Shown here: positions 20,270 through 39,879 of the stretch, piece after piece
Layout of the letters: every line of letters starts with the position of its first letter
How positions within the stretch are numbered: position 1 is the first letter of the stretch
From: a phage
Direction: 5' to 3' (one strand)
NCBI GenBank assembly: GCA_036253495.1
Contig: GCA_036253495.1_4125.1
Length of the DNA stretch: 64,000 nt
Notes under the pieces: model-generated
The model's input: only the letters and a program-made list of their open reading frames with translations
What the model was told of the DNA's origin: nothing
The model's database searches: none
Made by a program: the position numbers and the translations under genes

Positions 20270-20297
20270 TTGCATACTATGTTTAAGGGCGTATAAT
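20270..20297 (+). promoter_or_regulatory. early promoter
   Basis: AAAGTACTTGCAT ... TATAAT GTTTTACATC. Confidence 0.6.
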
Positions 20298-20353
20298 GTT
20301 TTACATCGAGACGGGGGAAACGCTCCTAACTCACTTTAATAGGAATTAAAACG

Positions 20354-20716
20354 ATGGCGACTCAAATCACTAAAATCATTGCTAACCTGGTTAACTTTCG
20401 CGAAGAGATGAAAGATCTTCCGGCTGAGACTGTAAAGATTCATATTTCAGCTTATCGGGAATTGATTGCAATGTTGCCGCTTAAGCGTGAACAATACGCC
20501 GCTACTGTGATGCTTGATGCGATGATCCACAAGATGATTGCCAGTGATTTAACGATGGCTTATCAGTACATGGGCGAACTATTTGCGGTGTATAGTAAAC
20601 CAGTGCCTGGGATGGAAAGTACAGAAGTATTGCACGGCTTAAACTTAAAACAAGATGCATGGGATAATATGCCTCGTTTCCTGGTATGGGCTGACAGTGG
20701 CAAGATTTACGAATAA
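20354..20716 (+). CDS. hypothetical early protein
   Basis: 120 aa; promoter TTGCAT/TATAAT upstream; SD AGGA. Confidence 0.65.
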   Translation: MATQITKIIANLVNFREEMKDLPAETVKIHISAYRELIAMLPLKREQYAATVMLDAMIHKMIASDLTMAYQYMGELFAVYSKPVPGMESTEVLHGLNLKQDAWDNMPRFLVWADSGKIYE

Positions 20717-20730
20717 GTTTTAAAAAGTAC

Positions 20731-20758
20731 TTGCAAAGTAAGTTTAAAAGCGTATAAT
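20731..20758 (+). promoter_or_regulatory. early promoter + 5' stem-loop
   Basis: TTGCAA-16-TATAAT; hairpin GTGGGGAA-tag-TTCCCCAC at ~20770-20789. Confidence 0.65.
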
Positions 20759-20810
20759 GTTTTACATCAGGTGGGGAATAGTTCCCCACTATATAAGAGG
20801 ATTTTTAATT

Positions 20811-21050
20811 ATGGCTACTACTAAAACTTTCAACGGTCACAAAAACAAAACTCATTGGAATGTAAGCCTTTGGATTAATAACGATGAGTCATTGTATCGT
20901 CTGGCGAAAGAATTTATCGACGCTAATACTAATCGTAATGATGCGGCCCGTCATATGATGCTATTTTTAGAACAAATTGGACAAGATAAAACTCCAGACG
21001 GTTTCAAGTATAGCACTACGGCGATCCGTGCTGCAATGGTTGGAATGTAA
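20811..21050 (+). CDS. hypothetical early protein
   Basis: 79 aa from MATTKTF; promoter + 5' hairpin + SD AGAGGA; track extension rejected. Confidence 0.65.
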   Translation: MATTKTFNGHKNKTHWNVSLWINNDESLYRLAKEFIDANTNRNDAARHMMLFLEQIGQDKTPDGFKYSTTAIRAAMVGM

Positions 21051-21071
21051 GAGAATAGATTTAAAGTACTA

Positions 21072-21096
21072 TTGCACGGTGATAGTACTTTATAAT
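21072..21096 (+). promoter_or_regulatory. possible promoter (weak spacing)
   Basis: TTGCAC ... TATAAT with short spacer. Confidence 0.3.
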
Positions 21097-21132
21097 AGAT
21101 TTCTTTTATACAACAACGATAGGGGTAACAGC

Positions 21133-21399
21133 ATGAATATTATATACTTTGCAACGCGTGAACAAGCTCGGCAAGCGGCAAAGGTTGACGGTGCAACGTT
21201 TAAAGATATGGGCGTACAATCTGAACGTGGTAAACGTTGGGCCGTAGTAAAGCAAAGTACAGCCCGATCAATTCAGTACTGGCTATCGGCTTTAAAGAGT
21301 CCTGATAGTGTATCGCGTCGAGTGGTAGAAATAAAGCACGACCGCAAGGGCAACCGTGTTACTGTGTACAGTACTAAAAAGATTGCAGTACTTGAATAA
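21133..21399 (+). CDS. hypothetical early protein (paralog of 33805-34200)
   Basis: 88 aa; shares FYATREQAR..GA.FKDMG..RWAV and HDRKGNRVTVYS with 33805-34200. Confidence 0.65.
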   Translation: MNIIYFATREQARQAAKVDGATFKDMGVQSERGKRWAVVKQSTARSIQYWLSALKSPDSVSRRVVEIKHDRKGNRVTVYSTKKIAVLE

Positions 21400-21405
21400 A
21401 AGTAC

Positions 21406-21433
21406 TTGCAAAGTAATTAGATTAACGTATAAT
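21406..21433 (+). promoter_or_regulatory. early promoter + 5' stem-loop
   Basis: TTGCAA-16-TATAAT; hairpin GTGGGGAA/TTCCCCAC. Confidence 0.65.
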
Positions 21434-21486
21434 ACTTTCTATCAGGTGGGGAATAGTTCCCCACTACAAATAAGAGGATTTTTAAA

Positions 21487-21717
21487 ATGGCTATTATGTA
21501 TATGACCGAAGTTAAAACCGTAAAAGATACTACCACTAATAAAACTACTTACTTACAGCGGGTATGCGGTGTATGGCAACGTATTAGTAAAGCAAAGTAC
21601 TTTAAATTAACATCATATGCTAATCGTTCGGATTCATTCAGTACTGAAATAAAAGGTAATAAATTACACCAATACGGCACTTATTATTATTATAGCCTGG
21701 ACGCGATTGCAGTCTAA
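21487..21717 (+). CDS. hypothetical early protein
   Basis: 76 aa; 5' region nearly identical to that of 20811-21050. Confidence 0.65.
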   Translation: MAIMYMTEVKTVKDTTTNKTTYLQRVCGVWQRISKAKYFKLTSYANRSDSFSTEIKGNKLHQYGTYYYYSLDAIAV

Positions 21718-21747
21718 GCAGTTTACAAATCTTTACAATTGCCGGTA

Positions 21748-21776
21748 TTGACTTATTTTGTCAGTACTGGCATAAT
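21748..21776 (+). promoter_or_regulatory. sigma70-like promoter in non-coding region
   Basis: TTGACT-17-CATAAT. Confidence 0.5.
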
Positions 21777-21968
21777 GTATCTATTGAAACGAACAATTTG
21801 GCCCACGGGGTGCGGGAGTGTATCTATAGAAAAAGTAGTTTAGTACAGTTACAATTGTGCACCCTATGGGTTAGCTGTTGTCATGGGGTATATTATACCA
21901 GTACTTGATAATGCTGTCAATACTTTTTTTTTACTATTCAGTACTGAAAACTATTTTTTAAAAAGTAC

Positions 21969-21996
21969 TTGCATACTATGTTTAAAGGCGTATAAT
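21969..21996 (+). promoter_or_regulatory. early promoter (upstream of structured leader)
   Basis: AAAAAGTACTTGCAT ... TATAAT GTTTTACATCAG. Confidence 0.6.
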
Positions 21997-22002
21997 GTTT
22001 TA

Positions 22003-22085
22003 CATCAGGACGGGGAACGAAATAAGTAACTCCCCGTTAAGTAGCCCAGGAGTAAGGCACACGAAAAACTCCCCTGATAAAATAG
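22003..22085 (+). other. conserved structured 5' leader RNA between tandem promoters (copy 1)
   Basis: ACGGGGAAcgaaataagtaaCTCCCCGT hairpin then CCAGGAG...CTCCCCTG; copy at 32613-32694 shows covariation. Confidence 0.5.
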
Positions 22086-22114
22086 TTTGACAAATGTTTT
22101 TAAAAGCGTATAAT
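22086..22114 (+). promoter_or_regulatory. second (proximal) promoter
   Basis: TTGACA-17-TATAAT, 30 nt before ATG 22147. Confidence 0.55.
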
Positions 22115-22146
22115 ACTTACATCAACTACTGAATGAGAGTTACAAA

Positions 22147-22821
22147 ATGAAAACTATCACTACTACTACTTTCGTTATGGATTTTTCTGAATTGAATGAG
22201 GGTGGCAAAGCGAAAACTATCACTACTACTACTTATGTTATGGCTTTTTCTGAATTGACCGCAGAACAACAAACGTCAGCTATCGAACTGGTTCGGGATC
22301 GTGAGCGTTCATGCGGGGATGATTTCTTTTCTGAGTCAGTGATCGAATACTATAAAGAAACATTATTGCCGGAATATGGCATTAATGACGCAGATTTACG
22401 ATTCAGTGGTTTTTGGTCGCAGGGTGACGGTGCATCAATCAGTACTGATCACGTTGACGGTGTGAAGTTTTTACGCAAGATTAAAGCATTAACTAAGTAT
22501 CGTTCTATCCGTCACCTGCTGAATGAAGATGATTTGGCAATGAGTGTAAAGCGTTCTCACTCCCACTACTCGCATGAAAACACTGTAAGCGGGTACATTG
22601 AATCGGCTTACACTGATTTAACCGCAAAACAAGAAACGTTAGTTAATGAGCTTGAGGAACTACTCACTGAAACTATTCGTGAATTATCTCGCAAGTTGTA
22701 CCGTGATTTAGAGAATGCATATGAGGATCAATTCACTACTGAGAACATTGTAGCACTGATTGAGGGTAACGAATATCAATTCAATGTTATTGATGGCGTA
22801 GTAGAATCAATCGAATATTAA
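22147..22821 (+). CDS. hypothetical protein with N-terminal in-frame tandem duplication
   Basis: 224 aa; KTITTTT(F/Y)VM(D/A)FSEL repeated twice; tandem promoters and structured leader upstream. Confidence 0.65.
   Translation: MKTITTTTFVMDFSELNEGGKAKTITTTTYVMAFSELTAEQQTSAIELVRDRERSCGDDFFSESVIEYYKETLLPEYGINDADLRFSGFWSQGDGASISTDHVDGVKFLRKIKALTKYRSIRHLLNEDDLAMSVKRSHSHYSHENTVSGYIESAYTDLTAKQETLVNELEELLTETIRELSRKLYRDLENAYEDQFTTENIVALIEGNEYQFNVIDGVVESIEY
22150..22262 (+). repeat. in-frame tandem duplication (~66-bp period) at 5' end of CDS 22147-22821
   Basis: AAAACTATCACTACTACTACTT..GTTATGG.TTTTTCTGAATTGA present twice. Confidence 0.8.
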
Positions 22822-22877
22822 TTCAGTACTGAATCAATGGCGGGAGTGGTTCCCGCCTATAACCAGGAGTAAGCATC

Positions 22878-23111
22878 ATGATCGAACAAATTCAAACGAC
22901 TACTAGCCGGAGCGGAACGAAAGTACATTCCATCGCTGATACTGATAAAGGTGTACCCTATTGTGCTGTACACGTAAACACTGACGGTGACTATTGGTTA
23001 ACTGTATACGGGCGTTACTCGTTTGCTTTTAGTGCACATAGTAAGATCCTGGAAGTAGTGAAGCCAACGGGTAAAAATATTACCGCTGAAATGTTTTATA
23101 AAAAGCACTAA
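22878..23111 (+). CDS. hypothetical early protein (paralog of 24247-24483)
   Basis: 77 aa; GVPYCAVHVNTDG.YW.TVYG..SF and PTGKNITAEMFYKK shared with 24247-24483. Confidence 0.65.
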   Translation: MIEQIQTTTSRSGTKVHSIADTDKGVPYCAVHVNTDGDYWLTVYGRYSFAFSAHSKILEVVKPTGKNITAEMFYKKH

Positions 23112-23118
23112 AAAGTAC

Positions 23119-23146
23119 TTGCAAAGTAATTAGATTAACGTATAAT
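23119..23146 (+). promoter_or_regulatory. early promoter + 5' stem-loop
   Basis: TTGCAA-16-TATAAT; hairpin GCGGGAA/TTCCCGC. Confidence 0.65.
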
Positions 23147-23196
23147 ACTTTATATCGAGAGCGGGAATAGTTCCCGCCTATACTGAGGATTATCTA

Positions 23197-23478
23197 ATGA
23201 GCAAAGTAATTAACTATACAGTACTAAGCAAGTCATTGTCTATCAGTGAGTGCACCGATGGTTATTGGCTTTATGATGAAACGCGTGGCATGAATTTAGC
23301 TATGCAGGAGAAAACTACTGATGCGGCATATCTTAAAGCACTGGAATACTACCAGAAGCGTTTAAAGGAAGTAGAAAACGATTATAATAACCTGAAAGCG
23401 AAAGTAGATAATTTCGTTGGTCAATTCGTTGACGATGACGAGGGGCACTACTGCGACCGTTGCGGATCTTACAGTTAA
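23197..23478 (+). CDS. hypothetical early protein
   Basis: 93 aa; promoter + hairpin GCGGGAA/TTCCCGC upstream. Confidence 0.6.
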   Translation: MSKVINYTVLSKSLSISECTDGYWLYDETRGMNLAMQEKTTDAAYLKALEYYQKRLKEVENDYNNLKAKVDNFVGQFVDDDEGHYCDRCGSYS

Positions 23479-23495
23479 GTACTAAGGATTATATA

Positions 23496-23699
23496 ATGAG
23501 TGATTTAATTGAACGTATCAAAGAGCTTGAAGAAAAAGAATTGCAGCTAATCGGCTTACAGAATAAAATCTATCATGATTTGGGGAGTTTTATCAATGCC
23601 TGGGATAGTGGCGATCCTGATGCGTTACCTGCTAACCGCCAGGCGATGATCAATGATGTGCGTCGTGTCTTTGAGTATGTTTTTAAGCAATTAAATTAA
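23496..23699 (+). CDS. hypothetical early protein
   Basis: 67 aa from MSDLIERIKELEE; SD AAGGA; track start 23460 rejected. Confidence 0.55.
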   Translation: MSDLIERIKELEEKELQLIGLQNKIYHDLGSFINAWDSGDPDALPANRQAMINDVRRVFEYVFKQLN

Positions 23700-23706
23700 A
23701 AAGTAC

Positions 23707-23734
23707 TTGCAATTAGTTTTCAGTACTGTATAAT
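23707..23734 (+). promoter_or_regulatory. early promoter + 5' stem-loop
   Basis: TTGCAA ... cAGTACTG TATAAT; hairpin GGGGAGAA/TTCTCCC. Confidence 0.65.
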
Positions 23735-23784
23735 AGTTTACATCAAGGGGAGAAATGGTTCTCCCTGGTAATGAGGAAAATACA

Positions 23785-24006
23785 ATGGCTAACATTACTA
23801 CCCTTTCCCAACTTGAAGCACTGGTTAAATCTATGCGGGAACATGCCGACAATATCGGCGTAAAAGATCCAGCCGTTTGCTTCTGCGACGATGTAAATGA
23901 TGATACACTGGTAATAGCAGAAGTCCAGGACGTTTCTAACTATTCATCGCGTTACACTGGCGGTGTAGCAAATAAAGGTGACTTCTGTTTATACCTTACT
24001 AAGTAA
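23785..24006 (+). CDS. hypothetical early protein
   Basis: 73 aa from MANITTLSQ; promoter + hairpin upstream; terminator downstream. Confidence 0.65.
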   Translation: MANITTLSQLEALVKSMREHADNIGVKDPAVCFCDDVNDDTLVIAEVQDVSNYSSRYTGGVANKGDFCLYLTK

Positions 24007-24010
24007 TACA

Positions 24011-24040
24011 GAGGGGATCGATTGATCCCCTTTATTTTGC
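24011..24040 (+). terminator. rho-independent terminator
   Basis: GGGGATC-gatt-GATCCCC + TTTATTTT. Confidence 0.7.
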
Positions 24041-24127
24041 AGTACTGAATCATTTAATAGACGGATCTATGCACCCGGTGGGTTAGAGACTGTATCGTCT
24101 TGATGTAGTAATTATGCCAGTACTGGA
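24041..24127. repeat. ~80-bp repeated intergenic element (copy 3)
   Basis: AGTACTGAA..CTATGCACCCGGTGGGTTAGAG..GTAATTATGCCAGTACTGG. Confidence 0.6.
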
Positions 24128-24172
24128 TGCAGTTGTCAAGAACTATTTTTCAAATACTTTTTATTAAAATAC

Positions 24173-24200
24173 TTGCTAATAGTTTTTAAACGCGTATAAT
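24173..24200 (+). promoter_or_regulatory. early promoter + 5' stem-loop
   Basis: TTGCTA-16-TATAAT; hairpin GGGGAgcgGTTCCCC. Confidence 0.6.
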
Positions 24201-24246
24201 GTTTTGCATAGGGGAGCGGTTCCCCTGGTAACTAAGGAATAAGAAA

Positions 24247-24483
24247 ATGCTTGAACAAATCAAAACAACGTCTGCGAATGTAACGGGAACGGTATCACAC
24301 TTTATTGGTGATGAATCGCGGGGCGTACCCTATTGTGCTGTACATGTAAACACTGATGGCAACTACTGGTTTACGGTTTACGGATCTTATTCATTTGGTC
24401 GACCTGGACATCAAAAAATCCTGGATAAAGTACAGCCAACGGGTAAAAATATCACTGCTGAAATGTTTTATAAAAAATCATAA
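24247..24483 (+). CDS. hypothetical early protein (paralog of 22878-23111)
   Basis: 78 aa; promoter + hairpin upstream. Confidence 0.65.
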   Translation: MLEQIKTTSANVTGTVSHFIGDESRGVPYCAVHVNTDGNYWFTVYGSYSFGRPGHQKILDKVQPTGKNITAEMFYKKS

Positions 24484-24488
24484 AGTAC

Positions 24489-24516
24489 TTGCAATTAGTT
24501 TTTAGTACTGTATAAT
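24489..24516 (+). promoter_or_regulatory. early promoter + 5' stem-loop
   Basis: TTGCAA-16-TATAAT; hairpin GGGGGAAC/GTTCCCC. Confidence 0.65.
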
Positions 24517-24566
24517 ATTTTACATAGCAAGGGGGAACGGTTCCCCTGGTAACTAAGGATAATCAA

Positions 24567-24866
24567 ATGAAAATTGCAATCATCGCCCTGGCTTTATCTG
24601 TTTCCTCTTTCGCTGTTAATGCGTCATTAGATGTACCTGGTGATAAATTCATTCAGTGCACAGTAGCAATGACAGATGAAAGTACTGGCGAGATTGTTTT
24701 AAAGGATCTGGAATTACAGCCAGAAGCATTTAAAAACGGGCCGTTCCATGAAGAAGACGAAAAAGGTAGCACAACAATTTATTATGATGCAATGAAAAAA
24801 CGTGGTTCTGTCACTGTTATGGATACTGAGAAAGTAACGCATACAGGCGTTATTAACTGCCTATAA
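24567..24866 (+). CDS. small secreted protein (signal peptide)
   Basis: MKIAIIALALSVSSFAVNA then mature part; terminator downstream. Confidence 0.65.
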   Translation: MKIAIIALALSVSSFAVNASLDVPGDKFIQCTVAMTDESTGEIVLKDLELQPEAFKNGPFHEEDEKGSTTIYYDAMKKRGSVTVMDTEKVTHTGVINCL

Positions 24867-24885
24867 TACATCAGTACTGAATCAC

Positions 24886-24915
24886 TAGCCCACTATAAGC
24901 AGTGGGCTTTTTTGT
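24886..24915 (+). terminator. rho-independent terminator
   Basis: AGCCCACT-ataagc-AGTGGGCT + TTTTTG. Confidence 0.75.
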
Positions 24916-24961
24916 AGTATCGTAGTACTGGAATACTTTGAAAATAGTTTTAAAAAAGTAG

Positions 24962-24990
24962 TTGACATTACCGCAAAAAGGCGTAGAATG
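24962..24990 (+). promoter_or_regulatory. promoter with long leader (H-NS-like gene)
   Basis: TTGACA-17-TAGAAT; ~120-nt leader before ATG 25113. Confidence 0.55.
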
Positions 24991-25112
24991 TATTACATCA
25001 AGACGGGGAACACTAAGTAGACCGCCAGTAAGTCGAACGAAAAACTGGACACGTCGAGAAAACTTTGATACACTAACTAACGTAAACTAAACTTTAATTG
25101 AGGAATTACATA

Positions 25113-25595
25113 ATGGCTAACGTAAAATCATTCATCAAAGCACTGGTAGCAAATGAAACTAACGTAGCGGCAGAAATCCTGGCCGAACTGGATAGCGATA
25201 CCATGAAAGCAGTACGCAACAATTTTAACATTGCGTACAGCGAAGCGAAAGAACTGCAAGCTAATAAAGCGGCAGCACTTGAAGCTGAGAAGGCAGCACG
25301 CGAAGCTGAATTGCAGAAAACGATTGAAGATATTAACGCCGCCGTCGCTGGGCTTGATCTGGAAGTAGTTACCGAAATGGCACGTAAAGCCCTGGCAGCG
25401 AAATACGGGGAAGACAAGCCAGAAGTAAAAGCTAAAAAATGGATTCAAGAACGTGTGACGGTTGTACTGGATAATGGCGAGGAATACACTGTACCAGTAC
25501 GCGGTAACTGCATTGCGGTAGTACTGGATGCTATCAAAGAAAGCGGATTGACTCGCGAGGAATGGATCGAATCTCATCGCAAAGTTGAAGCATAA
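25113..25595 (+). CDS. H-NS-like protein candidate (coiled-coil N-terminus, H-NS-like C-terminal domain)
   Basis: Ala/Glu/Lys-rich N-terminal half; C-terminus LDNGEEYTVPVRGNCIAVVLDAIKESGLTREEWI resembles H-NS [33 protein letters not shown]; long 5' leader; terminator. Confidence 0.45.
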   Translation: MANVKSFIKALVANETNVAAEILAELDSDTMKAVRNNFNIAYSEAKELQANKAAALEAEKAAREAELQKTIEDINAAVAGLDLEVVTEMARKALAAKYGEDKPEVKAKKWIQERVTVVLDNGEEYTVPVRGNCIAVVLDAIKESGLTREEWIESHRKVEA

Positions 25596-25615
25596 CAATT
25601 AAAGTACTGAATCAC

Positions 25616-25646
25616 TAGCCCACCTTAAACAGTGGGCTTTTTTTGT
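25616..25646 (+). terminator. rho-independent terminator
   Basis: AGCCCAC-cttaaac-AGTGGGCT + TTTTTTT. Confidence 0.75.
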
Positions 25647-25663
25647 GTCTATAGTATCCCAGT

Positions 25664-25733
25664 CCACCAGCACCGCCTAGAATCGATTCTAACGCATTAA
25701 ACTGATTATCTGATGCATCGCCCTAGCTGGTGG
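25664..25733. repeat. inverted repeat bounded by Chi octamers
   Basis: CCACCAGC (25664-25671) and GCTGGTGG (25726-25733); inner inverted CGATTCTAACGCATT / CGTTAGAATGCGATT. Confidence 0.6.
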
Positions 25734-25798
25734 CGTTAAGGTCGTTAGAATGCGATTGAGAGCGTTTAAAGTATTTTGCAAAAAGTAATAAAAAGTAC

Positions 25799-25826
25799 TT
25801 GCACGATAAAGAGATTAGCGTATAAT
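25799..25826 (+). promoter_or_regulatory. early promoter
   Basis: AAAAAGTACTTGCAC-16-TATAAT. Confidence 0.6.
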
Positions 25827-25871
25827 TAATTACATCAAGGCGAGACACCTTAACTAACTGAGGATATAAAG

Positions 25872-26024
25872 ATGAATACTTATGAACTGGATTGTTTCAC
25901 TTTACAAGTAATGTCAGTATGCAGTAAAAAAGATTGGTCATCAAAGGAATTTAAAGCAGTTATCGCGTGTGCAAAACACGGCAAGACTATCAATGAAACG
26001 GCATCAATCATTGATAAACTTTAA
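25872..26024 (+). CDS. small hypothetical protein (50 aa, not in ORF track)
   Basis: promoter TTGCAC/TATAAT upstream, SD GAGGA; MNTYELDCFTLQVMSVCSKK... Confidence 0.5.
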   Translation: MNTYELDCFTLQVMSVCSKKDWSSKEFKAVIACAKHGKTINETASIIDKL

Positions 26025-26032
26025 AAAATAGT

Positions 26033-26061
26033 TTGACAATAGTTTTAAGTACTGCGATAAT
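26033..26061 (+). promoter_or_regulatory. early promoter
   Basis: TTGACA-17-GATAAT. Confidence 0.55.
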
Positions 26062-26094
26062 ACATACATCAACTACTGAATAGGAATCAAAACA

Positions 26095-26322
26095 ATGGCT
26101 ATCGTAATCACTCGCGTAACTGGTACTACTGGCAATTCTTCTACTGTTGCTGTAATTACTAATAAGAAAGGTGCGGAATTGCATTTTGCAATGGATACCT
26201 GGGCAGTGAATGAGTTCGGTCAGTGGGCTAGTGTAGAATACATTGAATCCTATCAAGTGCCATCGATTAGCTTAACTGATTTAGGTGTAGAACGTATCCT
26301 TTGCCTGGATGAATTAAATTAA
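26095..26322 (+). CDS. hypothetical early protein
   Basis: 75 aa; promoter TTGACA/GATAAT upstream. Confidence 0.6.
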   Translation: MAIVITRVTGTTGNSSTVAVITNKKGAELHFAMDTWAVNEFGQWASVEYIESYQVPSISLTDLGVERILCLDELN

Positions 26323-26330: not shown

Positions 26331-26358
26331 TTGCAAAGTAAATCAAATAAAGTATAAT
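26331..26358 (+). promoter_or_regulatory. early promoter + 5' stem-loop
   Basis: TTGCAA-16-TATAAT; hairpin GGGGAGAA/TTCTCCCC. Confidence 0.65.
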
Positions 26359-26408
26359 ACATTACATCAAGGGGAGAAATGGTTCTCCCCACTAAGAGGA
26401 AACGAAAA

Positions 26409-26552
26409 ATGAAAACTTGTCAATGTGGTAAAAAATCTATTACTGGTTTAAAGCGGGGCGTTGCTCTTTGTCAGTATCACTATAATGCTCAAGTATGGGG
26501 TAAAGAGTGGGCCGACCGGGTTGAAGCATCAAAGAAAGCAAAAAGTAAGTAA
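26409..26552 (+). CDS. small Cys-rich protein (47 aa, not in ORF track)
   Basis: MKTCQCGKK...CQYHY; promoter + hairpin + SD AGAGGA upstream. Confidence 0.5.
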   Translation: MKTCQCGKKSITGLKRGVALCQYHYNAQVWGKEWADRVEASKKAKSK

Positions 26553-26571
26553 AAATATTATCACAGTACTA

Positions 26572-26600
26572 TTGACATAGATTGATAGTACTGGCATAAT
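26572..26600 (+). promoter_or_regulatory. early promoter (duplicated cassette, copy 1)
   Basis: TTGACA-17-CATAAT; same 90-bp cassette at 26857-26947 and 30738-30827. Confidence 0.6.
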
Positions 26601-26643
26601 AGATTTTATCAAGACAACACATATTAATTTAAGGAATACTAAA

Positions 26644-26856: not shown

Positions 26857-26875
26857 AATTATTATCACAGTACTA

Positions 26876-26904
26876 TTGACATAGTTTGATAGTACTGGCA
26901 TAAT
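26876..26904 (+). promoter_or_regulatory. early promoter (duplicated cassette, copy 2)
   Basis: TTGACA-17-CATAAT. Confidence 0.6.
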
Positions 26905-26947
26905 AGATTTTATCAAGACAACACATATTAATTTAAGGAATACTAAA

Positions 26948-32479: not shown

Positions 32480-32578
32480 ATACGCATAGAAACAAATTAG
32501 CCCACCGGGTGCATAAATGTATCTATTGTTTGCTGGTGGAGGTATTATCTAGTACTGAAAACTATTTTTAAAAAGTAC

Positions 32579-32612: not shown

Positions 32613-32694
32613 CATCAGGACGGGGAATGAAACAAGTAACCCCGTTAAGTAGTCCAGGAGTAAGACATAAGAAAACCTCCCCTGATAAAATAGT
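32613..32694 (+). other. conserved structured 5' leader RNA between tandem promoters (copy 2)
   Basis: ACGGGGAAtgaaacaagtaaCCCCGT then CCAGGAG...CCTCCCCTG. Confidence 0.5.
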
Positions 32695-32722
32695 TTGACA
32701 ATAGAAAGTAAACGAGTATAAT
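32695..32722 (+). promoter_or_regulatory. second (proximal) promoter
   Basis: TTGACA-16-TATAAT before ATG 32755. Confidence 0.55.
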
Positions 32723-33033: not shown

Positions 33034-33061
33034 TTGACAAAGTATCTTAGTACTGTATAAT
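33034..33061 (+). promoter_or_regulatory. early promoter + 5' stem-loop
   Basis: TTGACA-16-TATAAT; hairpin GAGGGGAA/TTCCCCTC. Confidence 0.65.
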
Positions 33062-33115
33062 AGTTTACATCAAGAGGGGAATGGTTCCCCTCCTAACAAA
33101 GAGAGAGAAATAAAA

Positions 33116-33298
33116 ATGGCTAAGTGCACTATCTGTAAGAAAGAAATCGTATTAGTTCCAAGTGCCCGTGAACGTGCCGCTCGGTTCGGTGGCAAAGCGT
33201 CAGACTATACAAAAATGTTTACTGCCCATGCAGATTGCCAGGTAGCAAAACGTTCACAAGAAAGCGTAGAATTAATGCGTAAACTTTCCAAAAAATAA
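33116..33298 (+). CDS. small zinc-ribbon-like protein
   Basis: 60 aa; CTIC...HADC motif; promoter + hairpin upstream. Confidence 0.6.
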   Translation: MAKCTICKKEIVLVPSARERAARFGGKASDYTKMFTAHADCQVAKRSQESVELMRKLSKK

Positions 33299-33301: not shown

Positions 33302-33329
33302 TTGACAAAGTATCTTAGTACTGTATAAT
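33302..33329 (+). promoter_or_regulatory. early promoter + 5' stem-loop (duplicate of 33034)
   Basis: TTGACA-16-TATAAT; hairpin GAGGGGAA/TTCCCCTC. Confidence 0.65.
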
Positions 33330-33385
33330 AGTTTACATCAAGTGAGGGGAATGGTTCCCCTCCTAACTAAAAGAGAGAAATAAAA

Positions 33386-33709
33386 ATGGCTATGATCCTC
33401 ACCCAGAAAGTAGAACTGAAAATTGTAACATCCTTTGACATTAAAGTTAATCGGTGGACTGATTCACACGGCAATACTTACCACTCTTGCTACGTGTCTG
33501 CGTTAATTGGCGACCGCTGGGAGGATTTAGGACATGAAACCTTTACTTACGGTTACGGCACACAAGGCGAATACACGGGCTTGGAGATCATTAAAGAAAC
33601 GGTTATAGGTTTCAACCCGAAAGAAAAAGTTATTCATCAAATAGAAAAAGAGATCAACAAAGAAATAACAGTTCGCTACAACGATGTAAAACGTAAGAAA
33701 GACATGTAA
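33386..33709 (+). CDS. hypothetical early protein (paralog of 26948-27271)
   Basis: 107 aa; upstream promoter/hairpin nearly identical to that of 33116. Confidence 0.7.
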   Translation: MAMILTQKVELKIVTSFDIKVNRWTDSHGNTYHSCYVSALIGDRWEDLGHETFTYGYGTQGEYTGLEIIKETVIGFNPKEKVIHQIEKEINKEITVRYNDVKRKKDM

Positions 33710-34854: not shown

Positions 34855-35082
34855 ATGATTAATATCTTAGAACGCATCAAAGAAACTACTACGCTGGTGG
34901 ATCTACTCAATGTACTGACTTTTAAAGTAACTCGGTTTAGTACTCCTGAATTTATCAACCTCATTGATAGTAAAGGTGAATACCGCATCACTATTGAAAA
35001 TGGTCGTGCTAATGTATTCAGTACTAAATCAGGTAAAACCGCAATTCATTCTGTAATTGCAAATAAAACTGTTGCAATCTAA
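34855..35082 (+). CDS. hypothetical early protein
   Basis: 75 aa from MINILERIK; duplicated promoter as upstream gene. Confidence 0.6.
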   Translation: MINILERIKETTTLVDLLNVLTFKVTRFSTPEFINLIDSKGEYRITIENGRANVFSTKSGKTAIHSVIANKTVAI

Positions 35083-35100
35083 TTAGTACTAACATATAAT
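35072..35100 (+). promoter_or_regulatory. promoter + 5' stem-loop (kinase-like gene)
   Basis: TTGCAA-17-TATAAT; hairpin GCAGGGA/TCCCTGC. Confidence 0.55.
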
Positions 35101-35151
35101 AGTCACATCAAGGCAGGGAATACCTCCCTGCTATCTTAAAGAGTAAATGCA

Positions 35152-35736
35152 ATGCGTAATTATACTAAATTCATCCGGGCACTGGCAGAAATGGAAACTA
35201 ACAAAGAGATCCTTACAGCTTGTCGGTTGGCTGGTCTGGAGATCATCGGGGCCGGATCATCCCGTATCGTATTCGCTTTAAATGATCGGTTAGTGATTAA
35301 GGTCGCTAATTGTGACGCTGGCGTAGAACAAAATGAAACAGAATGTAAGGTATGGAATTTTTTAGATTATGACCGCCCTCACCTTAAACAGTACTTTGCT
35401 AAGGTGCATATGCATTTAAGCGATCCTGATAATATGTTTATTGTTATGGATCGTTTGAGTACTGCAAGCAAAGGCAGTGTAAAGCACGTTAACGCTTGCA
35501 ATGAATTAAAGTACAATGTCAAACGTAACACTATTGAACGCCAACACCATTTCGCTGATGCACTACAACACGTTGATGATACCTTATCAACACTAACGAT
35601 AAGAGATATCAGAAAGCAGAACATAGGCCAAGATCGCAATGGCCTGATTAAAGTACTTGATTACGGTTTAACCCGCAATATCTGGAATCAGTACTATAAA
35701 CAACGCGACGTAAAAGCCGTAACTATAACACGATAA
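35152..35736 (+). CDS. protein kinase-like protein (candidate small Ser/Thr or atypical kinase)
   Basis: 194 aa; Gly-loop IIGAGSSRIVF, Lys motif LVIKV, catalytic-loop-like IRDIRKQNIG, DFG-like VLDYG. Confidence 0.5.
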   Translation: MRNYTKFIRALAEMETNKEILTACRLAGLEIIGAGSSRIVFALNDRLVIKVANCDAGVEQNETECKVWNFLDYDRPHLKQYFAKVHMHLSDPDNMFIVMDRLSTASKGSVKHVNACNELKYNVKRNTIERQHHFADALQHVDDTLSTLTIRDIRKQNIGQDRNGLIKVLDYGLTRNIWNQYYKQRDVKAVTITR

Positions 35737-35750
35737 AAAAGATTAAAAAA

Positions 35751-35783
35751 GGGATTGACTCCAGTCAGTCCCTTTGCTATTAT
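35751..35783 (+). promoter_or_regulatory. composite terminator-hairpin/promoter element (copy 3)
   Basis: AAAAAAGGGATTGACTCCAGTCAGTCCCTTTGCTATTAT. Confidence 0.55.
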
Positions 35784-35878
35784 ATAGTCATTGAGAGATA
35801 ACTCACTGACCCATAGGGTGCATAAGTGTATCTATAATATAAGTATTGTCAGTACTGAAAACTATTTTAAAAAAGTAC

Positions 35879-35906
35879 TTGCATTGTACTTAGAATCAAG
35901 TATAAT
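35879..35906 (+). promoter_or_regulatory. early promoter + 5' stem-loop
   Basis: TTGCAT-16-TATAAT; hairpin GGGGGAAAC/GTTCTCCC. Confidence 0.65.
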
Positions 35907-35958
35907 GTTTTATATCGAGAGGGGGAAACGGTTCTCCCTGGCAATAAGGAATAAAATC

Positions 35959-36180
35959 ATGACTACAATGACTTGCATTTACGCTTCCAATCTTCTGAAT
36001 GATGCGGCCTTTAATGTTGATTCAGAATATCAATGTTATCGGGATGAAAATAAAAAAGTTTTTGTAGTTGATAATAATGGTTTCCATATTGAATTGCAAT
36101 CCGGCTTCACTGGCGTTGATGGTAAATCAGTATGGGGCGTACAGGATGATAAAGGTACATATCATTTTAAACGTAATTAA
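35959..36180 (+). CDS. hypothetical early protein
   Basis: 73 aa from MTTMTCIY; promoter + hairpin; track extension from 35791 rejected. Confidence 0.6.
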   Translation: MTTMTCIYASNLLNDAAFNVDSEYQCYRDENKKVFVVDNNGFHIELQSGFTGVDGKSVWGVQDDKGTYHFKRN

Positions 36181-36183: not shown

Positions 36184-36211
36184 TTGACAAAGTATCTTAG
36201 TACTGTATAAT
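36184..36211 (+). promoter_or_regulatory. early promoter + 5' stem-loop
   Basis: TTGACA-16-TATAAT; hairpin GGGGAGAA/TTCTCCCC. Confidence 0.65.
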
Positions 36212-36263
36212 AGTTTACATCAAGGGGAGAATAGTTCTCCCCGATACTAAAAGGAATAAAATC

Positions 36264-36671
36264 ATGACTACTACTAATCAAGCTCGGTCCATCGCCAACG
36301 ATAAAAATCATGCTGCAATGGTCGCTGGTTACATTGAAGCTATGCAATTCAGTACTGTACACAATGAGAACGGCGAATACCTGGAAGATTATGAATTATC
36401 AGAGCAAGCCCATCAAGCGGCAGTGATTGCATGTTCACGTTTCCTTGCTGTACATGGTGAAGATATGGAAACAGTACAAAAACACCATAATCCTGATTAT
36501 ACTTATAATCATGCAGGTCATGATCTCTTTCTTACTCGCGAAGGTCACGGTACTGGCTTTTGGGATCGTGATATCGGTCACTATGACGATGTATTCACTA
36601 AGTACTGCGAAGAAATCAACGTTTGCGATCCCTATGTAGGCGATGATAATCTAATCTATATGGGCGAATAA
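36264..36671 (+). CDS. hypothetical protein with His/Asp-rich motif
   Basis: 135 aa; HAGHDLFLTREGHGTGFWDRDIGHYDD suggests metal-binding/hydrolase-like site (speculative). Confidence 0.65.
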   Translation: MTTTNQARSIANDKNHAAMVAGYIEAMQFSTVHNENGEYLEDYELSEQAHQAAVIACSRFLAVHGEDMETVQKHHNPDYTYNHAGHDLFLTREGHGTGFWDRDIGHYDDVFTKYCEEINVCDPYVGDDNLIYMGE

Positions 36672-36677: not shown

Positions 36678-36705
36678 TTGACAAAGTATATCAGTACTGT
36701 ATAAT
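36678..36705 (+). promoter_or_regulatory. early promoter + 5' stem-loop
   Basis: TTGACA-16-TATAAT; hairpin GGGGAGAA/TTCTCCCC. Confidence 0.65.
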
Positions 36706-36758
36706 AGTTTACATCAAGGGGAGAATAGTTCTCCCCACCAATAAAAGGAAACAACATT

Positions 36759-37031
36759 ATGTCAAGCTACTCCGCTACTATGATCATTAAAGATATGAAC
36801 GGTAATCCTACTTCTGCTGGTGGATCATTTGGAAACATTAACTTAGATGGTCGGTTATCAATGGAATCAGCCATCAATGCAGCGAAAGAAGTTTTTAAGA
36901 ATGAATGTACTGTAAGCAAGCTAGATTATATGGGCTTCGCTATCGAGAAAACTAAACGTTTTGTGGACTACAAAAATCCACTAATGATTGATACTAACCT
37001 GAAAGCTAACGAAGTGGAATACTTATTATGA
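36759..37031 (+). CDS. hypothetical early protein
   Basis: 90 aa; promoter + hairpin upstream. Confidence 0.65.
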   Translation: MSSYSATMIIKDMNGNPTSAGGSFGNINLDGRLSMESAINAAKEVFKNECTVSKLDYMGFAIEKTKRFVDYKNPLMIDTNLKANEVEYLL

Positions 37032-37226: not shown

Positions 37227-37254
37227 TTGCATTGTAGTTAGATTAAAGTATAAT
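37227..37254 (+). promoter_or_regulatory. early promoter + 5' stem-loop
   Basis: TTGCAT-16-TATAAT; hairpin GGGGGAAA/TTTCCCCT. Confidence 0.65.
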
Positions 37255-37306
37255 GTTTTATATCGAGAGGGGGAAATGGTTTCCCCTCAAGTCCAGGAGA
37301 TACACC

Positions 37307-37570
37307 ATGAACACTATCGAAATCACTATTAATGCTCACGTATACGACAACGTAGTACTGCAAACTACTATGACCGCTAACGATACCAGTACTTTGCGGA
37401 ATACTGTTATAAGTGCTGTATGTGCCGCTATCGGTGATGTATCCCTGGAAAATGCAGAACACATCAACAACGGTTTCACTATGTGCAAACGTGATAACGC
37501 AAAACATATCATCGTAGAAGGTTACGGCGGTGTAGAATATAACCTTTATATGAAAAAAGTACTTGCATAG
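37307..37570 (+). CDS. hypothetical early protein
   Basis: 87 aa from MNTIEITINAH; 3' end overlaps next promoter. Confidence 0.6.
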   Translation: MNTIEITINAHVYDNVVLQTTMTANDTSTLRNTVISAVCAAIGDVSLENAEHINNGFTMCKRDNAKHIIVEGYGGVEYNLYMKKVLA

Positions 37571-37590
37571 TAACTAAAACAAAGTATAAT
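37563..37590 (+). promoter_or_regulatory. early promoter + 5' stem-loop
   Basis: TTGCAT-16-TATAAT; hairpin GGGGGAG-atatc-CTCCCCC. Confidence 0.65.
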
Positions 37591-37638
37591 GTTTTGCATA
37601 GGGGGAGATATCCTCCCCCACTAATAAGGAGTACTACG

Positions 37639-37863
37639 ATGGCTAATCATGATGAACTGATTCGGGAAGTAGCTAACCTGGCGGCAGAAAAGAAATCATT
37701 TGATTCTATCTATAACACCGCTCACCGTGATTCAGTACTGGCATGTAATCAGGATCAAAAAGATGAACTGATCGCAACCTATCATGAAGCATGGAAGTAT
37801 TACCGTCAATGGGAGAAAGAAGAAAAAGCATCAACCATAAGAGGATTAAATAATCTAGTATAA
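37639..37863 (+). CDS. hypothetical early protein
   Basis: 74 aa from MANHDELIREV; SD AAGGAG. Confidence 0.6.
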   Translation: MANHDELIREVANLAAEKKSFDSIYNTAHRDSVLACNQDQKDELIATYHEAWKYYRQWEKEEKASTIRGLNNLV

Positions 37864-38182: not shown

Positions 38183-38187
38183 TAGTA

Positions 38188-38215
38188 TTGACAGTACTAA
38201 CTGATAGTGTATAAT
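38188..38215 (+). promoter_or_regulatory. early promoter + 5' stem-loop
   Basis: TTGACA-16-TATAAT; hairpin GGGGGAATACTCCCCC. Confidence 0.65.
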
Positions 38216-38262
38216 GTTTTGCATAGGGGGAATACTCCCCCAATATTAAAAGGGGAATCATC

Positions 38263-38520
38263 ATGGAACAATTCACACAATATCGGGTAAATCCTCAAGC
38301 TATGGCCTACGTAGAAGACCATAAAACGTTACCAGTACTGCAACCAGTTAAAGGCCGTATCTATCGTGGCCTTGCATGGAATACGGCCCAGGATGGATAT
38401 AAAACCGTTGCCGTGGGGATGTATTGCGGGAATGGTGAATGGTTTGATCCTAACAATCCGATTGCACTTGACAGTACTGAAAAAATGAAATGGGCCGACT
38501 ATATCGAGGATATCTCATAA
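38263..38520 (+). CDS. hypothetical early protein (paralog of 37916-38182)
   Basis: 85 aa; promoter + hairpin GGGGGAATACTCCCCC upstream. Confidence 0.65.
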   Translation: MEQFTQYRVNPQAMAYVEDHKTLPVLQPVKGRIYRGLAWNTAQDGYKTVAVGMYCGNGEWFDPNNPIALDSTEKMKWADYIEDIS

Positions 38521-38525
38521 AACTA

Positions 38526-38554
38526 TTTGACAGTACTATCATATAGTGTATAAT
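38526..38554 (+). promoter_or_regulatory. early promoter + 5' stem-loop
   Basis: TTGACA-17-TATAAT; hairpin GCGGGGGAA/TTCTCCCGC. Confidence 0.65.
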
Positions 38555-38609
38555 GTTTTACATAGAGCGGGGGAATAGTTCTCCCGCCAATAGTTTGGAG
38601 TAAAACATT

Positions 38610-38810
38610 ATGTCAATCGCTATCGCCCTGGTTGAAGTACTGAAAGAAGCTAAAGCTAACCTGATCGACGTAAAGATCCAGGAACTACAATCCGGCTTAA
38701 TCGGCTGTACTTGTACCGCTGGTGGGGCGACAGATTATCGTGAATTCGAATCACTCGAATCTATGGTTCGGTATCTTACAATGATCGTGGAAGATTGGAA
38801 GATCATCTAA
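38610..38810 (+). CDS. hypothetical early protein
   Basis: 66 aa; promoter + hairpin upstream. Confidence 0.6.
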   Translation: MSIAIALVEVLKEAKANLIDVKIQELQSGLIGCTCTAGGATDYREFESLESMVRYLTMIVEDWKII

Positions 38811-38828
38811 CAAAAAAGAATAAAAAAA

Positions 38829-38861
38829 GGGATTGACTCCGGTCAGTCCCTTTGCTATTAT
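38829..38861 (+). promoter_or_regulatory. composite terminator-hairpin/promoter element (copy 4)
   Basis: AAAAAAAGGGATTGACTCCGGTCAGTCCCTTTGCTATTAT. Confidence 0.55.
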
Positions 38862-38974
38862 ATACGCATAGACAAAAACTAGCCCACAGGGTGCATAGGT
38901 GTATCTAAAATATATAGTTAATAACGGTGAGTAACTATCTGCTGGTGGAGTGAAAACTATTAATAAAAAACTAT

Positions 38975-39002
38975 TGACAAAGTATAGCAGTACTGCAATA
39001 AT
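38975..39002 (+). promoter_or_regulatory. promoter
   Basis: TTGACA-16-AATAAT. Confidence 0.5.
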
Positions 39003-39055
39003 GTATCTCGTAGGGCGGCAATGGTGCGACGGTCCACAAAGTTAGGAGATTCAAA

Positions 39056-39388
39056 ATGAGTACTTCAATCGCTATCGTAAACGCTTTCATCCGTACCAAT
39101 GTTTCATCTGTATTCATTGACGGGCTGGATCGGGAAGTAGAATACTCAATCATTATCGCACAAACTGCAAACGGTGCTCGGTATATCCTCAATGATAGTG
39201 AAGCAAATCACTACTACTACACTAAAGCTACTGGCTTTAAACGCATCGATGCGGACGTAGTATACGCTAAGATGAATAAGCTGGTAGACAAGATTAACGC
39301 TAAAGGTACTATCGATTTACAGTACTGGACCGAAACCGATCCAGAATATGGATCACATCGCTACCTGAATCCAGGTATTAAAATGTAA
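39056..39388 (+). CDS. hypothetical early protein
   Basis: 110 aa; SD AGGAGA; promoter TTGACA upstream. Confidence 0.65.
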   Translation: MSTSIAIVNAFIRTNVSSVFIDGLDREVEYSIIIAQTANGARYILNDSEANHYYYTKATGFKRIDADVVYAKMNKLVDKINAKGTIDLQYWTETDPEYGSHRYLNPGIKM

Positions 39389-39395
39389 AAAGTAC

Positions 39396-39423
39396 TTGCA
39401 TAGTACTTAGTAAAGTGTATAAT
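39396..39423 (+). promoter_or_regulatory. early promoter + 5' stem-loop
   Basis: TTGCAT-16-TATAAT; hairpin GAGGGGGAAA/GGTTCTCCCTC. Confidence 0.65.
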
Positions 39424-39477
39424 GTTTTACATAGAGAGGGGGAAATGGTTCTCCCTCCTAAATTAAGGAGTTTTATC

Positions 39478-39879
39478 ATGACCTTCTCAATCACTTCTTA
39501 CGCTGACGTTTTAGTACTGGCTCGGACTTTTGGTAAAGATGCACTGGAGTACGCTGTAAGTAATGGTACTATCCAACCGGAGCAGTGCCGCATCATTGGA
39601 AACTGCAAACGTTGGGCGGTATCCAATACTATTGCACTGGAAAACTTCAACGATGGCAACAATGAATATTCTGTTGATGTAGTATTCGAAGCCGTTGATC
39701 TCGGCGGTATCTATAACACTAACCTGAATGATGTGCGTATCGTTCGCACGGGGTTCGGTGCTTATGATGTATCTATTCGTGAAGCTATGAACACCGGATA
39801 CATTAGCAAGGACTTACTTGCTCACATCATGCAGCTGTGGACGGAACGTAACGAAGCACGCACTATCTTAGGACTGTAA
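39478..39879 (+). CDS. hypothetical early protein
   Basis: 133 aa from MTFSITSYADV; promoter + hairpin; track extension rejected. Confidence 0.65.
   Translation: MTFSITSYADVLVLARTFGKDALEYAVSNGTIQPEQCRIIGNCKRWAVSNTIALENFNDGNNEYSVDVVFEAVDLGGIYNTNLNDVRIVRTGFGAYDVSIREAMNTGYISKDLLAHIMQLWTERNEARTILGL

Follow-up and report, generated by a model that had tools for sequence, protein, structure and literature searches.

Stem-loops in the predicted leaders of early promoter cassettes of an Asteriusvirus jumbo coliphage

Early promoters and the hairpins that follow them

This analysis concerns a family of G-rich stem-loops that follow early promoters in a 64-kb stretch of phage DNA (contig GCA_036253495.1_4125.1; "the window" denotes this whole stretch). 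Positions 20200-26200 align to Asteriusvirus genomes (121Q, PBECO4, G17, phAPEC6, A4 and others) at 86-94% identity. The matched phages are jumbo coliphages of ~350 kb in the Rak2-like group, and on these alignments the window is Asteriusvirus DNA of the 121Q/PBECO4-like kind. The 121Q counterpart of the gene array that carries the stem-loops consists of ~80 short plus-strand genes, almost all annotated as hypothetical proteins, and is adjoined by a minus-strand array of RCC1-like repeat genes. The related phage CBB has regions in which RpoD-like promoters with UP elements abound, and these have been taken to be its early genes (PMC5259590).

Reading 19-40 kb together with a scan for promoter-like sites gave ~50 promoter-like cassettes on the plus strand, and a canonical hairpin follows 26 of these promoters between 20.7 and 39.5 kb (Table 1). 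An earlier, sequence-only reading of this DNA had credited about 30 early promoters with such a hairpin; the promoter motif and the hairpins are indeed present, but ~24 further promoter-like cassettes in the same 20 kb, about half of the region's promoters, lack the canonical structure. The 26 promoters combine TTGACA, TTGCAA or TTGCAT with a 16-bp spacer (17 bp at 35095) and a perfect TATAAT, and an AT-rich stretch (AAAAAGTAC) lies upstream of the cassette promoters. After TATAAT comes (G/A)NTTTACAT(C/A/G) and then the hairpin, whose stem has 6-9 bp and whose loop has 3-8 nucleotides (nt), mostly TAG, TGG, CGG or ATGG, with ATGA, GTT, ACATC, ATACC and AAATAGTA also seen. All 26 cassettes stand within 19 kb and precede open reading frames (ORFs) of 29-194 amino acids. 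One further hairpin, at 22839-22857, has no promoter; it comes after a stop codon and a ATTCAGTACTGAAT palindrome, and its 121Q ortholog is likewise promoter-less.

The hairpin begins 8-14 nt after the -10 hexamer (mean 11.9, standard deviation 1.3), farther downstream than the ~5-10 nt first proposed. A Shine-Dalgarno (SD) sequence does follow it, as had been claimed, at a gap that ranges over 5-12 nt where ~10 nt had been given; the distance from hairpin to ATG is 14-23 nt, and 17-23 nt in every unit except that at 35112. Far above chance, a strong hairpin was found at 22 of 78 loosely defined promoter-like sites, whereas shuffling of the downstream segments gave one in 0.1% of cases. Alignment of the units with MAFFT was dropped because 3- and 4-nt loops shift the 5' arm and misalign the structure; in their place we used equal-length cuts of the hairpin with its flanks, a covariance model built from those cuts, and model-made alignments. 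The model recovers all of these hairpins, and every match in the 64-kb window lies within 20.76-39.47 kb. No Rfam family reached its gathering score anywhere in the window. The predicted leaders fold into one hairpin alone, at -10.6 to -15.9 kcal/mol, leaving the SD and AUG unpaired. Together, the spacing and the leader folds agree with the earlier suggestion that the predicted transcript carries the hairpin soon after its start and ahead of the SD.

Two candidate roles involving the ribosome site were rejected. Pairing of the pyrimidine arm with the SD, judged by eye, amounts to at best four weak pairs. As an insulator of the ribosome site the hairpin gained no real support, its in-silico deletion hardly moving the predicted unpaired probability of that site: in the primary transcript 0.645 becomes 0.631, and in a read-through context 0.582 becomes 0.554, with p ~0.05-0.07 across contexts. 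Separately, an ATG lies in or adjoining the loop in nine hairpins and is in frame with the downstream gene in five of these (23755, 26379, 28753, 31691 and 39445, with ATGG or ATGA loops), the gene lying 30-33 nt downstream with no intervening stop codon (MVLPTKRKRK-M and similar). Use of these loop ATGs as genuine starts was also rejected: five of nine in frame is not above chance, and the SD-like arm is only 2 nt upstream, which is too close. ORF callers may nevertheless choose false starts there.

Table 1. Hairpin-bearing cassettes and related elements in the window. The -10 column gives the first position of the hexamer unless a range is shown; lower-case letters are loops.
Feature	Span	Strand	-10	Hairpin	Arms and loop	ATG	Remarks
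Cassette	20731-20813	+	20753-20758	20770-20790	GGTGGGGAA-tag-TTCCCCACT	20811	-35 at 20731
Cassette	21406-21489	+	21428	21445-21465	GGTGGGGAA-tag-TTCCCCACT	21487	
Promoter-less hairpin	22839-22880	+		22839-22857	GGCGGGAG-tgg-TTCCCGCC	22878	SD after hairpin
Cassette	23119-23199	+	23141	23161-23177	GCGGGAA-tag-TTCCCGC	23197	
Cassette	23707-23787	+	23729	23747-23766	GGGGAGAA-atgg-TTCTCCCT	23785	
Cassette	24173-24249	+	24195	24209-24227	TAGGGGAG-cgg-TTCCCCTG	24247	
Cassette	24489-24569	+	24511	24531-24547	GGGGGAA-cgg-TTCCCCT	24567	
Cassette	26331-26411	+	26353	26371-26390	GGGGAGAA-atgg-TTCTCCCC	26409	
Cassette	28148-28232	+	28170	28190-28206	GCGGGAA-tgg-TTCCCGC	28230	
Cassette	28476-28557	+	28498	28516-28535	GGGGAG-aaatagta-CTCCCC	28555	
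Cassette	28705-28785	+	28727	28745-28764	GGGGGGAA-atgg-TTCTCCCC	28783	internal G·U
Cassette	29482-29564	+	29504	29523-29541	AGGGGAAA-cgg-TTTCCCCT	29562	
Cassette	30446-30527	+	30468	30486-30504	GGGGAGAA-tag-TTCTCCCC	30525	
Cassette	31371-31448	+	31393	31410-31428	AGGGGAA-acatc-TTCCCCT	31446	
Cassette	31643-31723	+	31665	31683-31702	GGGGAGAA-atga-TTCTCCCC	31721	
Cassette	31942-32023	+	31964	31982-32000	GGGGAGAA-gtt-TTCTCCCC	32021	
Cassette	33034-33118	+	33056	33074-33092	GAGGGGAA-tgg-TTCCCCTC	33116	
Cassette	33302-33388	+	33324	33344-33362	GAGGGGAA-tgg-TTCCCCTC	33386	
Cassette	35072-35154	+	35095	35112-35132	GGCAGGGA-atacc-TCCCTGCT	35152	
Cassette	35879-35961	+	35901	35920-35939	AGGGGGAA-acgg-TTCTCCCT	35959	internal G·U
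Cassette	36184-36266	+	36206	36224-36242	GGGGAGAA-tag-TTCTCCCC	36264	
Cassette	36678-36761	+	36700	36718-36736	GGGGAGAA-tag-TTCTCCCC	36759	
Cassette	37227-37309	+	37249	37267-37288	GAGGGGGAA-atgg-TTTCCCCTC	37307	internal G·U
Cassette	37563-37641	+	37585	37601-37619	GGGGGAG-atatc-CTCCCCC	37639	
Cassette	38188-38265	+	38210	38226-38241	GGGGGA-atac-TCCCCC	38263	
Cassette	38527-38612	+	38549	38567-38587	GCGGGGGAA-tag-TTCTCCCGC	38610	internal G·U
Cassette	39396-39480	+	39418	39436-39457	GAGGGGGAA-atgg-TTCTCCCTC	39478	internal G·U
RB49-type element	29162-29197	+					12-bp hairpin with -35 (TTGACT) in arm, T-rich tail, TATTAT -10
RB49-type element, further copy	32444-32479						also flagged terminator-like in scan
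RB49-type element, further copy	35748-35783						also flagged terminator-like in scan
RB49-type element, further copy	38826-38861						also flagged terminator-like in scan
Hairpin over -10	30046-30067	+	30056		GGGGCTATT-atat-AATAGTCCC		overlaps TATAAT; RB49-like position

A second promoter class without a hairpin occurs in the same region (26557-26640, 26861-26945, 30742-30825 and 31011-31105). It reads TATTATCACAGTACTATTGACAtagNttgatAGTACTGGCATAAT, with a 17-bp spacer, a TG at the extended -10 position, two AGTACT motifs on either side and an AU-rich, unstructured leader; in 121Q and in the Vequintavirinae phage A73 it stands in the hairpin cassette's place before some orthologous genes.

Pairing in the stem and the strand on which it acts

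Pairing of the arms was counted in 46 model matches from the window, 121Q, A73 and the Salmonella phage Munch. Standard pairs fill 97.2% of cells, as against 84.6% in column shuffles, none of 500 of which attained that value. Changes on both sides are seen in five of the eight pairs (42 double-change cells compared with 9.2 expected, a count inflated by paralogy), and pairing falls to 55-80% when the partner column is slid by 1-3 positions. One pair alternates between GC and AU; there we found GC 22 times, AU 13 times and the intermediate GU nine times, with no A·C. The few A·C cells at other pairs come either from positions flanking 7-bp stems or from the shift in register that 4-nt loops cause in the alignment. 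Next to its loop the stem is almost invariant within the genus (GAA..TTC, with AU in 44/44 and 41/44 distinct sequences). These counts uphold the earlier proposal of compensatory base changes, and they support the view that the stem has been kept by such changes, under selection on structure rather than sequence.

RaK2 (Alcyoneusvirus) and Munch also carry hairpins at the same offset after early promoters, with stem sequences unrelated to those of the window. The RaK2 stems include GGGGATACA/TGTATCCCT, GGGAATGAA/TTCATTCCC, GGAGATTCCA/TGGAATCTCC, GGGGCAA/TTGCCCC, AGGAGGT/ACCTCCT and GGGAGAGA/TCTCTCCC, with TAG, TGA, TTA, TAA, ACAAC or GAATAA loops and a hairpin-ATG distance of mostly 20-22 nt. 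In the window and in these other genera alike, the stem keeps a set place relative to both the -10 and the start codon. We consider this comparison across genera to be stronger evidence for a conserved structure than the pair counts within the family.

By RNA folding, 20 of 27 hairpins are stabler in the sense than in the antisense strand (mean difference -0.95 kcal/mol; p = 0.004 by the Wilcoxon test), and the biggest differences are due to the internal G·U pairs at 28745, 35920, 37267, 38567 and 39436. Because G·U pairs are tolerated, the sense fold is stabler and the spacing between arms varies (3-8 nt), the data favor a selected pairing on the sense single strand, most simply the transcript; for the same reasons a palindrome bound by a protein on double-stranded DNA is disfavored. 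Palindromes just downstream of promoters do occupy classic operator positions, and an operator for a dimeric repressor at +5 to +25 was weighed on that account. The hallmark of a double-stranded operator, conserved half-sites at a fixed spacing, was not found in the window hairpins: half-site sequences vary while their complementarity is kept, 3-8 bp separate the arms, and G·T is tolerated on one strand only. The promoters of phage N4 are DNA hairpins used by a non-host RNA polymerase, and the short 3-nt loops of many window hairpins superficially recall them. The sequence-only reading had listed a DNA-level hairpin promoter among its candidates; the covarying arms, their variable spacer and the sense-strand G·U pairs speak against it, as does the perfect sigma70 promoter already present upstream. 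A double-stranded operator or N4-like promoter is thus highly improbable.

In the record of Escherichia phage CMSTMSU (MH494197), many G/C runs in orthologous hairpins are 1-2 bases shorter and the stems are broken. This looks like homopolymer sequencing error in a record flagged UNVERIFIED_ORG, and CMSTMSU was left out of the pair counts.

Relation to PeSL cassettes and to sites of recombination

The closest described kind of element is the promoter-early stem-loop (PeSL) cassette of T4-like phages, which combines a sigma70-like promoter, an AT-rich upstream region and a GGGG..CCCC stem-loop. PeSLs are repeated between the ORFans of hyperplastic regions, are thought to act as terminators or attenuators and mediate modular shuffling (PMC2839356, PMC4122927); they are described in RB49/phi1, PST/T4 and nt-1/KVP40 (Arbiol et al. 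2010, PMC2839356; Comeau et al. 2014, PMC4122927). Mini-circles formed by recombination between cassettes also belong to their description. The window units share with PeSLs an early sigma70 promoter close to the consensus and preceded by AT-rich sequence, a stable and often GGGG..CCCC stem-loop accompanied by an SD and ATG, repetition between small ORFans of a hyperplastic early region, and indel or replacement breakpoints between related phages that fall in the cassettes. The window also carries RB49-type copies in which the hairpin covers the -35 and has a T-rich tail. Inspection of the RB49 sequence showed, however, a hairpin set ahead of the transcription start, either overlapping the -10 or in the gap that separates it from the -35. 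Only five window elements (29162, 32444, 35748, 38826 and 30046) have a position of this RB49 type, whereas the 26 window hairpins come after the -10 and belong to the RNA that their promoter makes. The carriers differ as well, being Rak2-like jumbo phages and an rV5-like phage rather than Straboviridae. We therefore regard the window units as a positional variant of the PeSL, with the stem-loop moved to the 5' leader; on this view PeSL-type mobile promoter cassettes extend from T4-like phages to Rak2-like jumbo phages and an rV5-like phage.

A terminator scan of the region found a T-run after none of the 26 hairpins, their tails being ACTAAGAGG, GGTAACTAAGG and similar, while the same scan flagged T-run terminators nearby at 24887, 25617, 31257 and 34223, as well as the four RB49-type hairpins with a -35 in their arm (29162, 32444, 35748 and 38826). 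The 26 hairpins are not canonical intrinsic (Rho-independent) terminators. Given their place after the -10 and the absence of a T-run, the terminator role suggested for PeSLs is not directly transferable to them. An attenuator of the PeSL sort, damping read-through from upstream or conditionally ending its own transcripts and so setting levels in a dense array, has some precedent: the RB49 stem-loop, without an obvious U-tract, lowered lacZ as strongly as rrnB T1 (PMC2839356), premature termination in 5' untranslated regions (UTRs) is common in Pseudomonas phages (PMC10914365), and most array genes have no other terminator between them. Yet real T-run terminators do exist in this region, an efficient terminator at ~+30 would abolish the output of its own strong promoter, and the RB49 hairpins on which the proposal was built sit inside the promoter. 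We judge attenuation to be improbable here. Since a stem-loop inside the transcript separates the "terminator" from the RNA-leader reading of PeSL hairpins, the two can be told apart with simple reporters.

The same kind of promoter, concentrated before short hypothetical early genes, has been described in other phages: CBB and GAP32 (Rak2-like) have RpoD-like early promoters with a UP element (PMC5259590), and rV5 has sigma70-like promoters (PMC3606486). We found no description of the leader hairpins in the Asteriusvirus, CBB/GAP32 or rV5 literature; the words stem-loop and hairpin are absent from the CBB paper (PMC5259590), and the rV5 paper uses stem-loop for terminators only (PMC3606486).

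Comparison of orthologous genes shows the cassettes changing. Before the gene at 21487 the window has GGTGGGGAA/TTCCCCACT and the 121Q ortholog GCGGGAA-cac-TTCCCGC; the A73 ortholog of the gene at 39478 has GGGCGGCA/TGCCGCTC; and two genes that follow a hairpin cassette in the window, at 35152 and 38263, have 121Q orthologs whose promoter lacks the hairpin. Cassette-plus-gene units are common to the window and A73 (rV5-like, Vequintavirinae) at 80-87% identity, and the A73 early array contains nine model matches. In the Yersinia Eneladusvirus fHe-Yen9-03 a hairpin was found at only one of ~20 annotated promoters; because this phage mostly does without it, the hairpin appears to be an accessory feature limited to certain lineages. 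A promoter-anchored pattern scan of viral contigs (GTATAATNNTTTACAT) gave mostly single chance matches outside 121Q and was not used.

Collinear blocks between the window and 121Q stop and resume at the cassettes. Fourteen of 22 breakpoints fall within hairpin cassettes that cover 14.4% of the region (binomial p = 1.6e-7), a concentration that is biased upward both by selection against breaks in coding sequence, which pushes them toward intergenic cassettes, and by alignments that extend through similar cassettes. Two more lie no more than 10 nt past a cassette's ATG, and some are inside the hairpin itself (24209, 28202 and 35132). Several cassette-flanked segments are missing from 121Q (24247-24483, 28231-28701, 33116-33298, 36264-36671 and 37307-37570); what is gained or lost is whole genes with a cassette on either side. 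Judged by these alignments, differences in gene content between related phages sit at the cassettes, which explains where genes come and go among the ORFans of the early regions. Phages of this kind are candidates for therapy.

The clustering of breakpoints in cassettes and within hairpins, together with the units held in common with a Vequintavirinae phage, could also point to a role at the DNA level, in which an extruded single-stranded hairpin or cruciform is a recombination hot spot or the target of a recombination protein, or in which the hairpin merely hitch-hikes in a spreading cassette. The authors of the PeSL work speculated on a recombination protein that binds GGGG..CCCC (PMC2839356). 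Whole-cassette homology of ~85 bp is already enough for recombination, however, and hitch-hiking alone fails to explain why pairing is kept across unrelated stems. A double-strand cruciform would not be expected to show the G·U bias of the sense strand, with which a hairpin in sense-strand single-stranded DNA is nevertheless compatible. We consider this group of explanations quite improbable.

Proposed role of the leader hairpin and other repeated elements

The explanation that we prefer, tentatively and at somewhat less than even probability, is that the hairpin is a stabilizing element of the 5' leader within a portable early-expression cassette. In each unit an UP-like, AT-rich stretch precedes a sigma70 promoter close to the consensus; after it come the conserved ..TTTACAT.., a GC-rich stem-loop, a short linker predicted to be unpaired, the SD and the ATG of a small ORFan-type gene. 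Transcription by host RNA polymerase would begin ~8 nt past the -10, with the A of the conserved CAT, and the hairpin would then span roughly +4/+8 to +25 of a ~45-nt leader, locking most of this AU-rich leader into a helix of -10 to -16 kcal/mol that abuts the SD-bound ribosome. Almost no naked single-stranded RNA would be left for decay dependent on RppH or RNase E, so that early mRNAs might last longer and expression might be uniform whatever gene is joined to the cassette. The repeated cassettes would also offer homology for recombination, shuffling early genes in the manner of PeSLs. Each genome holds a natural library of ~26 strong sigma70 promoters with a standardized leader, which are possible expression parts.

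This proposal draws on the findings that RppH and RNase E need single-stranded 5' ends and that 5' secondary structure stabilizes E. coli mRNAs (PMC3997798), as do the 5'-terminal stem-loops of ompA and papA (reviewed in PMC3997798) and the 5'-UTR stem-loop of vacA (PMC4843948). Like those leaders, the predicted leaders of the window units are short and have a GC-rich hairpin close to the 5' end, with an accessible SD after it. Unlike them, they form a family of ~26 covarying copies on sigma70 transcripts, and their predicted unpaired 5' tail, mostly 4-7 nt, is long for strict 5'-end protection. Transcripts of T7 gene 10 likewise have a 5' stem-loop (GGGAGACCACAACGGUUUCCC), and the G-rich 5' arm of the window hairpins is similar to that of this phi10 leader.

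Several considerations weigh against a stabilizing role. The start site, the A of CAT, is predicted, and leaves 1-7 unpaired nucleotides before the hairpin, mostly 4-7. A pAUCA-stem substrate is still cleaved in a 5'-monophosphate-dependent manner, four unpaired nucleotides being sufficient for RNase E, and scanning by RNase E is hardly hindered by an orthogonal stem-loop (PMC11194081). Simple 5'-end protection of early mRNAs, one of the functions first suggested for these hairpins, is therefore weakened, because published substrates suggest that tails of 4-7 nt still admit RNase E and RppH (PMC11194081, PMC3997798). A location at the 5' end is not required, since the conserved hairpin at 22839-22857 has no promoter, and about half of the array promoters, like most early promoters of fHe-Yen9-03, work with no hairpin at all. 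Predicted ribosome-site accessibility is hardly altered by in-silico deletion of the hairpin (0.645 vs 0.631, p ~0.05); the RB49 PeSL stem-loop, with no clear U-tract, cut downstream lacZ like a terminator (PMC2839356); and the covariation counts come from paralogous and orthologous copies whose cells are not independent.

The weak predicted effect in cis leaves room for a factor in trans, and a shared RNA operator, through which a phage or host RNA-binding protein or endonuclease coordinates the shut-off, processing or decay of ~26 early mRNAs after the early phase, is an unlikely but credible alternative. It would account for a single structure at a single position beside the SD across a whole temporal class of transcripts, for the near-invariant stem top and the few prevalent loops (TAG, TGG, CGG and ATGG) within the genus, and for the promoter-less copy retained beside an SD. 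Against it, no candidate protein was identified, the loops vary in sequence and in size, and the stems and loops of RaK2 and Munch are wholly different, so that recognition by shape or co-evolution in each lineage would be needed. The nut sites of phage lambda, a boxA with a boxB hairpin downstream of the early promoters, offer a partial parallel, in that a small RNA hairpin is transcribed soon after each early promoter. The window hairpins differ from them in having no conserved loop or boxA-like element across lineages and in lying ~7 nt from every gene's SD, not once per operon; a loop of conserved sequence or size of the boxB type was not found among the window and RaK2 loops. Broader still, and decidedly unlikely in our estimate, would be a regulon-wide RNA tag on the early transcripts of large enterobacterial myoviruses, Rak2-like and rV5-like, read by its shape by a dedicated phage factor that co-evolves with it in each lineage and serves to switch off, process or protect the early class, with the cassettes moving between unrelated phage families as co-regulated units.

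Beyond the leader hairpins, the window holds other repeated elements. The RB49-type elements of Table 1 belong to a repeated unit, a terminator-like hairpin bearing the -35 (AAAGGGATTGACTCCGGTCAGTCCCTTT) with a TATTAT -10, at 29162-29260, 32444-32540, 35748-35850, 38826-38925 and 21748-21830. Behind this unit comes a conserved motif, ..AGCCCAC(C/A)GGGTGC(A/G)NA(A/G)(A/G)TGTATCTAT.., with no ORF directly following; the AGCCCAC-type motif is common to Asteriusvirus and RaK2 (near 9215, 15802, 17239, 21171, 23817 and 25691 of the examined RaK2 stretch) and could be a non-coding leader or small RNA. At 22004-22092 and 32614-32700, with a diverged copy at 24997-25085, a full early promoter is followed not by a gene but by a non-coding element of ~85 nt in which an AUCAGG/CCUGAU stem encloses an ACGGGG/CCCCGU hairpin, with a second promoter directly after the element. 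This candidate small RNA is kept in A73 (14918-15006 of the examined stretch).

An AGTACT-type palindrome, CAGTACTG, has 59 copies in the window, compared with 0.83 expected, and is found in coding and non-coding DNA, often immediately 5' of the -10 (cAGTACTGTATAAT). AGTACT counts are 212 in 44 kb of 121Q, 222 in 40 kb of RaK2 and 93 in 24 kb of Munch, and only seven in 30 kb of the rV5-like A73.

A non-coding gap at 18900-20250 separates the minus-strand gene array from the plus-strand early array. At 19151-19217 it holds 2.6 copies of a 26-bp repeat (CAGTACTGTTATTAACAGAATGGTAG), and at 19460-19554 GGCTGGAT and CTAGATGG units form an iteron-like array; the gap could be an origin or a regulatory region. 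On the minus strand, the repeated genes at 5960-13270, RCC1-like repeat proteins according to the 121Q annotation, share one terminator, GCCAGTAC-ttga-GTACTGGC with a T-run, which includes the AGTACT motif.

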